A stretch of 64,000 nt of DNA from Phycisphaeraceae bacterium (GTDB lineage: Bacteria; Planctomycetota; Phycisphaerae; Phycisphaerales; Phycisphaeraceae), in NCBI GenBank assembly GCA_963674705.1, contig OY771506.1, positions 3,040,001-3,104,000 on the forward strand, written 5' to 3'. Shown one piece after another: positions 42,001 to 48,000 of this stretch; position 1 is the stretch's first letter, and every line of letters starts with the position of its first letter. The position numbers are program-made.

Positions 42001-45000
42001 GGTCCAGGCGAGCTTGCCATAGTAGATGAACTTATCTCCGAGGCTGAACTCTCCGGAGGGCAGGATGGCGCGTAGGCCGGAGACAGGCTTGACCACTTCG
42101 CCGTCGTGATCGACCCTGATGGCGTAGCGACCGCGGTGCAACATGCGCTCCATGTTGAACGCCGGCCGCCTGGCAACCAGCCATGCCAGCAGCGAACAGG
42201 TCACGTACCCCACGATCGACAGGCACATGGCGAAGAAGTTGACCCACTGGCCATCCAGCGGGAACTCATCAGGGCCGACCTTCCAGTTGATCCCCCAGAC
42301 GCGCGTCGAGACGCCTTCAAGCCCTGTCCTAACCAGGTCCAGCAGCCAAGGGGCGTCCGTAACCATCCAGGGATACAGTGAGTCCTTCCATAATAGACGC
42401 AAAATCATCCCGCTGACTGCGACGACCCACCCGGTGGTCAGGGCGACCCACGCCCCGCTGGTCGAACCACGCTTCCAGTAGAGCCCGCCAATGATCAGCG
42501 AGCCCGCACCGCCGATGTAGATCGCGCCGGTGATGGCGAAGAACATGAAGATCAGGTCATTCTGCTCATACAGCAGGCTGAAGAAGAAGATGAAGACGGC
42601 TACAAAGAAGATCGAGAACCGCAACATCCGCATGTGTTGTTTGGGCGTGAAGGGCTTCTTGCGGAACGGCAGGATCACGTCCTGAATGAACATGGAGCCC
42701 CAAGAGTGCAGGTAGGTATCGTGCGTGGCGGTGTTGGCCGCCAACATGGTCGCGCACAGAAGCCCGATCATCCCGACCGGCAGTGCCTTGGACAGTACGA
42801 CAGGGACGGTCATCTGCTCGCGGATCTGCGGGTTCTCGATCCCGTCAAGCACACCCATCGCGTTGGCAACGACCTGCTCGTACCCGCTGTGGTGCATGAT
42901 GACGAAAGCCCCGATCGGCAGGAACATGGCCACGACGGTGAACACCAGCCCCCGCCACTCACCGAGGATCCCGGCCATCTTCGCCTCATGCGCCGTCCTG
43001 GCCGAGGCGTTGTAGCCCTGCGATCCCTGCCACGCCTTCCAACCGTAGACATAAGTGAAGGCGCCGATCAGGAAGAAGAAGATGTTGAATCCCTCGACCT
43101 TGGAGGTCTGGAACGGCTGAATCATCGAGGCGTCCTTGGGCGCTTCTCTGAGCGTGTCTATGATCGTCGACCAGTCGAACATCCAGAAGATCGCGCCCAG
43201 AATGACGATGAACACGATATTGGTGAAGACGCCCTGTATGAAGTCCGTGACCATAATGGCGATCTGACCACCGATGAACACGAAGAACAGCGCGATCCCC
43301 AGCATCACGACCATGACGCCCGCGTAGACCAGATCGATGTCGCGCCCCAGGATGTTCACGGGGTAGTGCGGGAACCCGCAGAAGTAGATCATGAACCGCG
43401 CGCCTACAGCGGGGAAGATCCCGAAGTTGATGATGCCCGCGAGCCAGCCGAGGATGCCGGCGTAGACCCGGATGCCCTTGCTGTAGCGCACCTCGAAAAA
43501 CTGCGCCATCGTCATCACCCGCGTTTCACGATATCGATAGATCACCCACCCCGACAGCGCAATGATCAATGCCAACGGCGTCATGATGAGGTGCCACCAG
43601 TCGGCAGTGAGGCCCGCCTTGTAGTACATCTCGAAGAAAGCGACGATACTGATCGACCCCAGCCCGGCGGTCCCTTGGGAGATGCACAACAGGTAACGCC
43701 CGGCGCAGCGATTGGCCGCCAGGAAGTCCGCGATGCTCTGGATGCACTTCTTCGTCGAAATCGCCGCCGCGACGATCCCCACCAGCAGGCCCAGGACGAT
43801 GCACCAGTCGATCCAGTGCATGTTTGAAGCGAATACGGCCAAGCTCGGGGTCGGCATGCTGGTTGGATTCCTTCCTGGCGGCTATGCAGATAAGGATGAC
43901 CGGATGCGACCGATACGTTCAATCGGCGGCGTCGGAGTGCGTGTGACTCACGGTTCTGTCGGGGCTGGCCATGATCTGATGCTGCATGGCCCGATCCGGA
44001 TCTCGTCCATCCTGTGCAAAGAGTTTGGCCAGCCATAGGTGCGCCAGTTTGTAGCCCGGCGCCATCGACACGCAGGTCTCCAGTGCCTGGATCGCCTGCT
44101 CGGTCTTGCCGGTTTCCGCTAGTGCGACACCGAGGTTGTAATGAGCTCTAGGGAACTGGTGCGTCAGCCCGACCGCACGCAATGCGTAGTCCACCGCCTC
44201 ATCGTAGTGTTTTTTCACGATCGAAACACGGGCCAGCCCGTTGTATGCGACCGAGCTTTCGTCATCATTTCCCAGCAGCTTTTTATACGCACGCTCCGCA
44301 TCGTCCCACTTCGCAAGCTGGCCGTAGGCCTGTCCCAAGGCCCCGAGCAACGCCTCCATATCGGGCGCAATCGTCTCCGCCCGTTTGAGGTATTCAATCG
44401 CCTCCTCGGGCTTTTCCTGACGAAGCTTCACCTGCCCAAGCGTGGCTAGCAGGACGGCGTTAGTGGGGAATGTTTCAAGCAGCTCAAGGAGCAGCGGCTC
44501 ACACAGGTCCGTCTGGCCTGTCAGCAGGTAGCAGCGCGCCAGTTGGAATTTGTATGCGACGGCGTCCTCCTCGTCCTGGACCAGCAGCTCCTGCCAAATG
44601 GGAATCGCCTGGTCTGCTCGCTGGCTATCCGTCAGAGCCTTGGCAAGGTTAATCTTCTGGTCGAACATGGCGTGTTGAACGCTTTTCTGGACATCGTCGC
44701 TCGGTGCATCGATATAACCGAGTTCCACCAAGTGACGGATCGCTTCGGCTGAGGCGACCGGGTCTTCCCTACAGTCCTCCCCGTGCATCCCGTCATCGCC
44801 TTCGACCTGGTCCCAACTGATGATGTGCTCGGCCCGTATCTCCTTGTCGAAGATCTCCAGCCATGGTCGTCCGTCCATATCCGCACCGATAGGCAGGCCG
44901 AACAGCGACAGAATGGTCGGCGTGACGTCCAGCACCGTAGCGCCGTAGACGTGGGTGTCTTGCTTGATCCCGGGCCCCTTGGCGCAGACCACACCGAACG

Positions 45001-48000
45001 GCCGGTGCCAGCTCTCGGGGTCTTTGAACCCGTCGGAGTCACTTCGGCCCTTGCCGCTGTGGAAACCGTGGTCGGAAACCAAGATGACGGTGGTATCGTC
45101 CCCAGCGTAGCTTAACATCGCCTCGAGCATCATGTCGTGGTATCGGTAACAGCCGTTCATCACATCCTTGTACAGATCGGCGTCACGCTCGCTGACGCCT
45201 TCTATAGCGGGTGGATGGAAAGGCATGAAGTAGTGCCCCATCAGGTCGATCGCGTCGTAATAGACAGCCATGAAGTCCCACGGCTCGTTGTTCATCAGCC
45301 AGCACGCGGCGGCGTGAACCGTGCTGGCGCGTGCCAGCAACCCGGCGAATGTACCGAGTCGATCGTCCTTCGCCGTATCAATCTCCGCGGCGCGGGGGAT
45401 GAAAGGCAGGATGGCCATGGCGTCGAGCTGACGAGGGTCGACCCGCAGTTTCAGCAGGTCACCCGCCAGGCGTTCCGGGTGGAACATGCCGTCGCTCGAT
45501 GAGGGTGCTTGCTGATCCGGGCCCAGACGCGTCACGTAGCGTTCGGTCACGACCGCGCCGTTGATCGGCTCGGCGGGGTGGCTGGCGTACCATGTGACGA
45601 CGTTGGACTTCATCCCGCTCTGAGAAAGGATGTTCCACAGGGCCTTGGTCTTGCGGCTGGTGCTGCTGACCGGGCGGATGCCGCTGCCGTCAGGCAACGG
45701 TTCGGTGAAGCCGTAGATCCCGTGTTTGTCCGCACGTTTGCCCGTGGCGATCGAGTTCCAGAGCATCGGCGACAGGATCGGGCGGATCGTGGCGAGTTTG
45801 CCACTGACCCCATCCTTGATCATCTGTTCGAGTGTCGGCATCAGGCCCTGTTCGATCAACGGCCTGATCATGACCCAGTCGGCGGCGTCCCAGCCGATCA
45901 GAAGGACCTTCTTGGCTAACCGTTGTGTCATCTTGATCCCGATTTGGATTCTTCGGTATTAGTAAGTAAAGGGCCAGGCCCACGGTTACGCAAGCCCAGC
46001 CCGAGTGTTGAAACCGTCACAACAGCATCCGTGCCGGGTTACGCCGAGCGGCGGCGCAGGCCGATGGCGCCGAGGCCGGCAGCGAGCAGGCCCAGCGACG
46101 CCGGTTCGGGAACCGCGCCGGCAACGATGTCGGTGTCCACAGCGCTCTCGTAGGCGTAGTCGTAGGCGATAAGGTGCGAATTGTACTGGCTCGTGCCGGT
46201 GATTTTCAGCCGGATCCAGGCCCAGTGCAAACCCCCACCCGCGTCTTCCAGTTGAATAGCCGCGTACTGCGGGTCGGTCAGGTTGCGGAAGTTGGTATAG
46301 GAGACATGTAGTCTGTCGAGGGCATTGGATAACGGCGACACGTTCGGGTTGGATGATCCGATGATGTCACCCGCACCGAACGACCGGACATAAGCGTTGT
46401 TGCCCTTGGAGATGTTGGTCATGGTAGTCGTGCCGTTTATCCCAAAGCACCTCATTCGCGCGAACCACCCAGGGCTCGAACCCGGCGCGTACGCGTCGGT
46501 GTGTTGGATCAGCAGGTCATCGGTACCGTCACCATTCATGTCCAAGTAAAACCCAGGATCACCTGTGACCTGGTCGACATCGGGGACAATGTCACCATAG
46601 ATGATCGCCGCCTGCGCGCCTTGAGCGGCGCCGAAAGCACCCAATCCTGCCGCGGCCGAGTAGGCCATCAGTCGCTTAACACTATCCTGCTTCTCTCTGG
46701 TCTCCATCTGCTTTCTCCCATCAATAAGGTGTGAAAATAGTATTCGAACAAACACAATGGACAACATACATCGAAGTTAAACTGTTAGGTTCAAGACGTG
46801 CGTCCTCCTCTCTAACAACCCCCGTTTCTTGTGTGAATCACATGCTGTGTAGCGGGGTATTAGGCCGGCCGTAACCGCCCCCGGAGGTCGGGGCGGTTGC
46901 AGGCCGGATCGAGTTTGATCACATACGCCGGCGACGCTTACATGCCATGGCGCCGAGACCCACGGCGAGCAGGCCCAGCGTGGCCGGTTCGGGAACGGCG
47001 GCGACGGGCGGCGTGCCGTTGTTCCAGTTGTTCAGCACAATGTCCAGGTCGGATAGACCCACAAATCCATCACCCGTGGGATCGCCTTCGCTCCATTCGC
47101 CCGGAGTTACGTTCTGGTTCCAGTTGGTCAGAACGATATCCAGGTCGTCCAAGCCGACGAAGCCGTCGCCGTTGAGGTCGCCGTCTATCGAGGTGACACC
47201 CATGTCACCGGCAAGAATCCCGGTCACGTTGTACAGGTCGGTCTCGTAGGCGTAGTCGTAGGTCGTCAAGAGAGAATTAGTTGAGCTGGTGCCGGTCACT
47301 TTCATTCGGATCCAAGCCCAGTGCAGGCCCCCGCCCGAATCCGCCAAACGGATCGCCGCGTATTGCGGATCGGTCAGGTTACGGAAGTTGGTATAGGCGA
47401 CATGCACCCGGCTGAAAGGGCTGATGCACAACTGCACGTCTGGATTGGAGTTGCTGATGTCATCACCCGCACCGAACGAACGGACATAATAGAGGTTGCC
47501 CTTGGAGGCGTTGGTCGCCACGCGCGTGTTGCCTAACGGGTAGCACCTGAACCGCTGGTACCAACCGGAGCTCGCGGCCGGCGCGTAGTTGTCGACATGT
47601 ACGATCCTCAAGTCATCGATACCGTCACTATTCATATCCAGTAAAAACTCGGGATCATTTTCGGCCTGGATGATATCGGGGTTGATGTCGCCATAAATGA
47701 CTGACGCCTGAGCGCCTTGTGCGGCGCCGAAAGCACCCAGCCCGGCCGCGGCCGAGTAAGCGAGAAGTCTTTCCAGCGTATCCTGAGTCGATTCATTCTT
47801 GTAATTTGACATACTTTTCTCCTCAATGCAAAAAGGTAAGACGTGCGGTATTCACATAAAAAAACCAAAGATTCACAATGAATTGGTTTATCAGATTGTG
47901 TAACTCGAGCCTGTTAGTTGATCAAGGCAATTAACACCGCAAACAAATGACGGCGCGTTGGGTTGTTTGGGTTGACTGGCCGGCGGATAATCTTGGGCGA

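Follow-up and report, generated by a model that had tools for sequence, protein, structure and literature searches.

An AlkP-TPR enzyme that may bind the signal peptides of neighbouring PEP-CTERM proteins and hold them for sulfation

Why does a cytoplasmic enzyme gene recur beside genes for PEP-CTERM proteins with an unusual signal peptide in the genome of a Phycisphaeraceae bacterium? We addressed this question from one locus in a 64,000-nucleotide window (contig OY771506.1, positions 3,040,001 to 3,104,000), where two co-directional cargo genes, whose leaders both read RL[ML]AYSAAAGLGAF, lie upstream of the gene for the enzyme P0001 (Table 1). An earlier note on this DNA had proposed a leader-guided transferase that adds a phospho- or sulfo-ester to exosortase substrates. 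Our analysis points to a modified reading, in which the enzyme binds the signal peptide and likely holds the precursor while a sulfotransferase sulfates the cargo before export; we favor it tentatively, at a probability of about 0.4.

Table 1. Features of the AlkP-TPR locus and its surroundings, in window positions.
Feature	Position	Strand	Basis or remark
AlkP (NPP-branch)-TPR enzyme P0001	43919..45931	-	670 aa, PF01663 + TPR, cytoplasmic
AlkP domain and linker, residues 1-410	44702..45931	-	conservation and fold comparison
TPR array, residues 414-655	43967..44692	-	domain search and structure model
Predicted leader-binding surface, AlkP side, residues 326-329, 355-359, 364-367	44831..44956	-	complex prediction
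Predicted leader-binding surface, TPR side, residues 577-591, 600, 612-622	44066..44203	-	complex prediction
Cargo 1, 222-aa precursor (leader/signal, beta-domain, PEP-CTERM)	46039..46707	-	ORF and domain search
Cargo 1 leader, residues 5-26 (R12, L13, Y16, A19, A20)	46630..46695	-	motif conservation and complex prediction
Cargo 1 mature beta-domain ('HYGW' family, no Pfam match)	46114..46602	-	
Cargo 1 PEP-CTERM tail, Gly/Ala-rich subclass resembling Bacteroidota mini-protein	46042..46110	-	
Cargo 2, 297-aa precursor	46919..47812	-	same beta-domain as cargo 1
Cargo 2 leader motif	47729-47770	-	
Cargo 2 PEP-CTERM tail	46922-46996	-	
SSS-family symporter (context only)	41668..43857	-	PF00474; downstream of enzyme
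GH20 hexosaminidase, ROK regulator, prepilin-type N-methyl protein (context only)	47891..51584	-	
Second GH20 (context only)	39589-41211		

P0001 opens directly with its first beta-strand and has no signal peptide, in line with the cytoplasmic location first proposed, and its structure model reaches pLDDT 94 and pTM 0.93. Its best fold matches are ENPP7 (Z 26.8), PafA (26.5) and Xac NPP (25.8), at rmsd 3.0-3.7 Å over 268-328 residues and 16-22% identity, and it has the fold and two-metal ligand set of this NPP/PafA branch (PF01663) in common with them. The site comprises D15, S54 at the nucleophile position, D229, H233, D287, H288 and H309; its metal ligands are 99-100% conserved in 121 sequences, gathered by a locus search seeded on the D15 motif, and the fold, both metal sites and a Ser/Thr nucleophile occur together in six of the seven copies in this genome. 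P0001 differs from the branch in its cytoplasmic location, its Ser rather than Thr nucleophile, its TPR array and an invariant Phe75, which stands at what we take, by motif spacing only and without superposition, to be the position of the NPP phosphate-binding Asn. R93 and R296 are likewise invariant, and an LxxLGY motif at 401-406 is 99-100% conserved in the same 121 sequences. Formylglycine sulfatases carry the signature (C/S)xPxR at the nucleophile; all 79 relative loci have SP[MIL]LW instead, and we rejected that assignment. The catalytic part has, as first reported, neither a named family nor a solved relative: a PDB sequence search gave no match at E<0.05 (best E 0.054), and NCBIfam names no family for it, for the Bacteroidota mini-proteins described below or for the partner sulfotransferase. 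The full-length profile brings up TPR proteins in the 60 PDB matches listed, a Foldseek search is likewise dominated by them, and an Atlas look-up returned only generic names.

The cargo are PEP-CTERM/exosortase substrates, with a signal peptide at one end and a PEP motif, a hydrophobic helix and basic residues at the other; their tails match PF07589/TIGR02595 above cut-off, and the genome has three PF09721 exosortase genes. Their mature part is a folded domain of ~160 residues; Pfam matched none of 58 such domains, and surface proteins of Bacteroidota, HmuY-like or similar, take the top seven places among the fold matches, at Z of only 5.1-6.5, below the tool's trust level. An AxA cleavage site follows the leader of cargo 1 at residues 31-33, and cargo 2 bears a dockerin-like repeat with a weak NF041540 match.

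Seven paralogues are indeed present, but the metal ligands that the earlier note had described as intact throughout are kept in only six; the copy at contig position 2110233 has E, P, G, R, N, H and K at D15, S54, D229, H233, D287, H288 and H309. Every copy has a PEP-CTERM neighbor within 300 bp, as claimed, against a background of 242 of 2134 genes of >=300 aa (11%) with a PEP-CTERM gene within 500 bp, the seven copies not being independent of each other. A conserved leader also held up, although the strict pattern RL(L/M)xY(S/T)AAAG(L/M)GAF fits only five ORFs. The earlier note placed all of its 11 leader genes near an enzyme; a looser pattern of ours finds 11 ORFs, all PEP-CTERM, of which nine have an enzyme gene no more than 2 kb away and two lie at a distance of about 140 kb. 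The leader pattern marks 10/17 cargo and none of the 343 other PEP-CTERM proteins of this genome, and cargo signal peptides are less hydrophobic (KD 1.6 vs 2.38).

The pairing of enzyme and PEP-CTERM gene is real and wider than first noted. Across 79 relative loci from Planctomycetota, Verrucomicrobiota and Acidobacteriota, a PEP-CTERM-type gene lies directly upstream of the enzyme in 69, extending an initial count of 8 in 11. Clustering at 90% identity gives at least 7,800 groups for the enzyme family, and clustering at 50% identity gives 14,068 for the cargo family (E<=1e-10). Enzyme genes occur in 77 of 301 genomes of one Bacteroidota order, in 8 loci of a metagenome scan and in a cultured host, Lacipirellula limnantheis (locus L020); no relative was found on viral contigs. 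In Bacteroidota, the same weak Tyr-bearing signal peptide is also found on T9SS and lipoprotein cargo, and the PEP-CTERM-like tail comes there as a mini-protein of its own (in the 79 PVC-type loci, frames of >=60 aa were searched for such mini-proteins). Since T9SS and lipoprotein cargo share the leader, the system is not exosortase-specific, and the proposal of a modification dedicated to the exosortase route is not supported: anchors vary, and the three exosortases of this genome are unlinked. Shared descent contributes, because most cargo belong to one family (53/57) and the covariation described below is mostly a single clade shift; the leader also occurs on an unrelated mature domain in two loci.

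Does the enzyme recognize the leader? Complex prediction places it in a cleft between the AlkP and TPR parts, away from the catalytic residues, with an ipSAE of 0.84 vs 0.00 for the best of three controls (runs agree >=69%; partner pLDDT >=68); the ipSAE mark is reached by 116 of 157 solved pairs and 2 of 215 mismatched ones, counts that hold only roughly. Of 601 enzyme columns, the predicted contacts 616 and 615 come third and fourth for covariation with leader residue 16. In a comparison of leader and tail columns across 92 cargo, the top pair scored 0.143 against a 95% permutation level of 0.111; the complex prediction, in which the tail was unscored, listed no confident leader-tail contact. 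Enzyme-less genomes (G266 and five Bacteroidota) have homologous cargo with ordinary signals, and the inactive copy of this genome has lost the cleft residues while its cargo have lost the Tyr leader. In genome G229, three of four cargo unlinked to the enzyme keep the leader, in trans; G083, by contrast, has 12 unlinked cargo whose signal peptides are of the ordinary kind, and so the cargo beta-domain does not need the enzyme. Three catalytically dead copies in G249 keep both the cleft residues and leader cargo, a persistence that shows that the predicted binding can outlast catalysis. Of the leader-guided transferase first proposed, the recognition step is supported by the complex prediction, by leader loss with the enzyme or its predicted cleft and by retention in trans. 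The RiPP-type separation of leader binding from catalysis is predicted from the docking, with genomic support from the same leader loss, retention and covariation. Among 197 cargo sequences no Ser, Thr or Tyr acceptor is invariant, the best, Y186 (83%), being swapped for W or F.

A small PAPS-type sulfotransferase indicates the likely chemistry. It is fused to the enzyme in 9 of the 79 loci and within 2.5 kb in 29 (38 together), and all but one of 20 Bacteroidota loci have the fusion (19 of 20); the fused domains of L048, L056, L067 and L093 match PF00685/PF13469, including the PAPS-binding loop, above cut-off. None of this type lies within 2.5 kb in the other 41 loci, nor at any locus of this genome, which has a single homologue of those fused domains at contig position 5425192. 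The gene is present in all eight sampled genomes with a close enzyme copy (>350 bits) and was not found in G249, whose copies are all dead. Among 147 Planctomycetota that lack a close copy, however, 13 carry the gene as well, next to other AlkP proteins and genes for sulfate activation. Loci L092 and L094 have CysD/CysN-like and APS-kinase-like neighbors. GNAT-like neighbors in 7/79 loci suggest other chemistry. Because the sulfotransferase is fused or adjacent in 38/79 loci, the sulfo half of the original 'phospho- or sulfo-ester' is favored over the phospho half.

We propose that a weakly hydrophobic signal peptide with an (R/K)LxxY(S/A)xA motif docks in the AlkP-TPR cleft, as predicted, and that the enzyme likely retains the precursor in the cytoplasm during sulfate addition by the PAPS-type sulfotransferase. 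Sulfate would go to the cargo itself or to a glycan that it carries. With its two metals and Ser54, the AlkP site may relay sulfate or remove the nucleotide by-product, and the Gly/Ala-rich tail, whether PEP-CTERM in cis or mini-protein in trans, could offer a second point of docking or of attachment to the membrane. In this genome a single sulfotransferase would serve all enzyme copies in trans. Several observations count against this proposal: the cargo share no invariant acceptor, dead copies in G249 keep leader cargo, 41 of the 79 loci have no such sulfotransferase nearby, the sulfotransferase also turns up in genomes that lack a close enzyme copy, and GNAT-like neighbors, ordinary signals on the G083 cargo and shared descent point elsewhere. 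A fuller version, possible but rather unlikely, is an anchor-independent sulfation pathway in which the cleavable Sec signal peptide is the docking leader, AlkP-TPR relays PAPS sulfate via Ser54 onto folded surface proteins, and the tail or mini-protein is a cofactor peptide.

Other readings weigh the same evidence differently. TorD-type chaperones are cytoplasmic proteins that bind their partner's signal peptide before export and serve Tat substrates in cofactor loading; their fold is unrelated to AlkP-TPR, and the pre-export binding predicted here is alike. The enzyme could be a private signal-peptide chaperone or export gate that holds or routes the precursor, with catalysis secondary. Dead copies that keep cargo and cleft, weakly hydrophobic signal peptides and predicted docking away from the catalytic residues all speak for this, but the near-complete conservation of the metal ligands, in that D15-seeded set, and the tight fusion to a sulfotransferase leave it on balance doubtful. 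Alternatively, the leader (nascent or cleaved off) and tail might allosterically trigger sulfation or hydrolysis of some other substrate, for instance a nucleotide, a glycan or a sugar linked to lipid, with the cargo acting outside as a ligand-binding protein. The remote leader site and lack of an invariant acceptor would fit, as would the HmuY-like matches were they not below the trust level, and Agl30/31 sulfate glycan rather than protein (PMC11980604); ligand sensing would, however, have no obvious path, because AxA cleavage separates leader from outer domain, and we consider this unlikely.

Transfer of a phospho-ester (phosphoglycerol, phosphoethanolamine or nucleotidyl) to the cargo by the AlkP domain alone would suit an NPP/PafA-type two-metal site with a Ser nucleophile, but the partner genes are sulfate-related and Phe75 occupies the presumed phosphate-binding position, making it quite improbable. 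Very improbable is a hydrolase for the hexosamine substrates of the locus, paired with PEP-CTERM genes by cassette descent only. The enzyme copies of this genome do sit among SSS/ROK/GH genes, and cargo are mostly one family; yet SSS/GH20/ROK relatives lie near only 8/79 loci, GH20 near 3/79 and close relatives of the symporter near few, so that the hexosamine genes are lineage-specific, and retention of the leader in trans, its loss without the enzyme and the complex prediction all count against this reading.

Among the papers listed in our literature searches, which left out most subscription papers and supplements, none describes the system, in line with the earlier note. Alike by description are Halobacterium Agl30/Agl31, AlkP-core sulfotransferases for surface glycoproteins, sulfatase-like according to the searches of that paper, of which Agl31 is cytosolic; they act on N-glycan, and the available text reports no TPR or leader docking for them (PMC11980604). 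In the sulfated RiPP RaxX, the precursor gene adjoins that for the sulfotransferase RaxST and sulfation precedes export with the leader on, but RaxX is a short peptide exported by PCAT/T1SS, without an AlkP-TPR partner, and in the accessible portion of the source RaxST recruitment by the leader is not shown (10.1101/442517). The serine-rich-repeat adhesin GspB is a surface preprotein modified intracellularly and routed by a Gly-containing signal core; its modifications are glycosylation and acetylation, and it uses a dedicated SecA2/SecY2 (PMC5578698). SecA2/SecY2/Asp and glycosyltransferase genes are not among the recurrent neighbor families of the 79 loci, and we rejected an accessory Sec system here.

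Neither the enzyme family nor the cargo family has an assigned function. If our reading is true, this AlkP subfamily would gain its first function and PEP-CTERM tails an additional one, and a signal peptide that recruits a modifier would be a tag that could be moved between exported proteins to tailor them.

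The enzyme encoded in the window joins an alkaline phosphatase-superfamily (AlkP) domain to TPRs, with no signal peptide found, and two PEP-CTERM genes lie immediately upstream on the same strand. An earlier note's claim that every copy has a PEP-CTERM neighbour is borne out for all seven paralogues in the source genome (28-100% identity). For comparison, 242 of the genome's 2134 genes of at least 300 aa have a PEP-CTERM gene within 500 bp; it holds about 360 PEP-CTERM genes. Six of the seven keep the catalytic set that the note took to be intact throughout, the exception being the copy at contig position 2110233. 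Such dead copies persist beside cargo, the exported beta-domain proteins encoded next to the enzyme, in this genome and in another, G249, where three (L099, L100) adjoin uncharacterised genes and a PP-loop-like protein. Elsewhere in the window, the primase/helicase-like, phage-type and transposase/integrase ORFs suggest a mobile-element remnant.

Features of the window and of related loci (window, contig or locus coordinates)
Feature	Position	Strand	Remarks
AlkP-TPR enzyme, 670 aa	window 43919-45931	-	PF01663 + TPR
Near-invariant LxxLGY helix	window 44714-44731		enzyme residues 401-406
Cargo 1	window 46039-46707		
Primase/helicase-like ORF	window 29707-31926	-	by eye
Methyltransferase, flavin oxidoreductase, type III polyketide synthase-like genes	window 33476-36460	+	consecutive; by eye
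Phage-type ORF	window 36831-37691	+	by eye
Transposase/integrase fragments	window 38183-39276	-	overlapping; by eye
Repeat-rich PEP-CTERM protein, 1156 aa	window 60478-63948	+	dockerin-like repeat
Dead enzyme copy	contig 2110233-2112176		adjoins GNAT gene and cargo without Tyr leader
Distant cargo homologue	contig 5020791		ordinary signal, ordinary tail
Unrelated mature domain, same leader and tail	L044 6413-6982		
Unrelated mature domain, same leader and tail	L066 6272-6865		different sulfotransferase downstream
Enzyme-sulfotransferase fusion broken up around IS-like insertion	L163 (G111) 6391-10482		mini-ORF and leader cargo still flank

The predicted enzyme model is confident (pLDDT 94, pTM 0.93) and lies nearest to ENPP7 (Z 26.8), PafA (Z 26.5) and Xac NPP (Z 25.8). 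Across 121 enzyme sequences, D15, S54, D229, H233, D287, H288 and H309 are 99-100% conserved and F75, R93 and R296 invariant; because the D15 motif served as seed in finding the loci, dead copies are under-counted. The nucleophile motif is SP[MIL]LW rather than a sulfatase signature. JGI names the protein 'predicted AlkP superfamily phosphohydrolase/phosphomutase'. By eye, related AlkP clusters (L095, L165, L166) have APS-kinase-like and thioredoxin-like neighbours whose C-terminal tails resemble the LxxLGY helix, which may be a docking motif common to them all.

The earlier note counted an upstream leader-type PEP-CTERM gene in 8 of 11 loci; among the best 79 of 573 confirmed GTDB loci, the enzyme is immediately preceded by a gene of PEP-CTERM or PEP-CTERM-like type in 69 (from 74 automatic picks, seven removed and two regained by eye). 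A cargo-domain profile, built largely from the same loci, matches 72/79. The beta-domain of the cargo, which places 53 of 57 in a single cluster, has no Pfam match and only weak, HmuY-like fold matches (Z at most 6.5). Cargo signal peptides are weakly hydrophobic; the leader reads (R/K)LxxY(S/A)xAAG, with Tyr or His at position 16 and an AxA site after, and the tail (S/T)L(G/A)LLAxGAxGLxxxRRR. The strict RL(L/M)xY(S/T)AAAG(L/M)GAF motif proposed earlier occurs in five ORFs of the source genome and a looser pattern in 11, two of which lie 140 kb from any enzyme. Acidobacteriota cargo (L017, L083, L084) has the leader and shortened tail-like ends without a PEP motif. A 95-member viral VPDSG-CTERM cluster scores 0.95 against cargo 1 (Atlas); the enzyme was not found in viral contigs.

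The earlier note placed the system on the exosortase route, but it is not exosortase-specific: in Bacteroidota the enzyme accompanies T9SS or lipoprotein cargo with the same leader. Among 20 loci hand-picked from across the 77 ranked positive genomes of a single order, a sulfotransferase is fused to the enzyme in 19, cargo occurs in 16, and the leader in 12 by regex and more by eye. In 16, a stand-alone mini-ORF encodes a motif resembling the tail, GSLGLLALG...WR; nine of these seeded its profile, and 27 of 30 top-ranked short loci, from partly overlapping genomes, have it too. The profile gives source-genome cargo tails higher scores than the tails of other PEP-CTERM proteins (median 12.6 vs -0.3).

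Leader and enzyme can be compared only across incomplete genome samples with non-independent kin: cargo was found in 5/151 Planctomycetota genomes, four with the enzyme, and in 9/121 Bacteroidota-phylum genomes. Cargo signals are ordinary in G266, where no catalytic-domain match was found, and in five enzyme-less Bacteroidota-phylum genomes (a further genome's cargo N-terminus is not visible). G083 carries the leader on 3/4 linked vs 0/12 unlinked cargo. G229, with one enzyme, keeps leader and tail on 3/4 cargo, all on other contigs, and in G111 the enzyme gene beside leader cargo is broken.

Structure prediction suggests that the leader probably docks on the enzyme. Modelled with enzyme, tail and two Zn, the leader as scored partner reached 0.84 (runs 0.83, 0.86, 0.84; best of three controls 0.00), with at least 69% of contacts shared between runs and partner pLDDT at least 68. 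The mark for this score, reached by 116/157 solved and 2/215 mismatched pairs, is only roughly applicable given our own alignments and ligand, and generic memory may contribute because TPR-helix complexes are common. Leader R12, L13, Y16, A19 and A20 would pack on enzyme residues 326-367 and 577-622, and none of the confident contacts involves a catalytic residue. The sequences lend support: conservation is modestly higher in the predicted TPR contact columns (0.52 vs 0.37-0.44). Residue 616 follows leader position 16 (Ala in 37/38 with Tyr, Ser in 8/10 with His), ranking third of 601 columns for covariation, mostly through one clade shift. In the source genome, the dead copy no longer has this cleft and the Tyr leader is gone from its cargo; the dead G249 copies keep both where sequence is complete.

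A ~190-aa PF00685/PF13469 sulfotransferase domain is fused to the enzyme in 9/79 loci and lies within 2.5 kb in 29/79; it is present in 8/8 sampled genomes with a close enzyme copy, vs 13/147 other Planctomycetota and 1/117 other Bacteroidota; none was found in G249. The source genome carries a single sulfotransferase of this type, unlinked, as well as an APS-kinase-like gene, and elsewhere, by eye, such sulfotransferases adjoin other AlkP proteins and sulfate adenylyltransferase-like and APS kinase-like genes. There is precedent for AlkP-core sulfotransferases (PMC11980604). The hydrolase for hexosamine substrates considered earlier fares poorly, sugar genes being lineage-specific (near 8/79 loci; GH20 near 3/79). 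Against cargo sulfation stand the lack of an invariant acceptor residue, dead copies that still have cargo, GNAT-like partners in 7/79 loci and the absence of an adjacent sulfotransferase in 41/79. Less likely than sulfation is an enzyme acting as chaperone of its cargo, and slightly less likely again one switched by peptides such as the leader.

Literature searches found no published description of this system. RaxX/RaxST and accessory-Sec adhesins follow a similar logic, but this system could not be assigned to either class. We propose cargo sulfation, at a probability of about 0.4, as the best single mechanism by which this enzyme family may act on its leader-bearing cargo.
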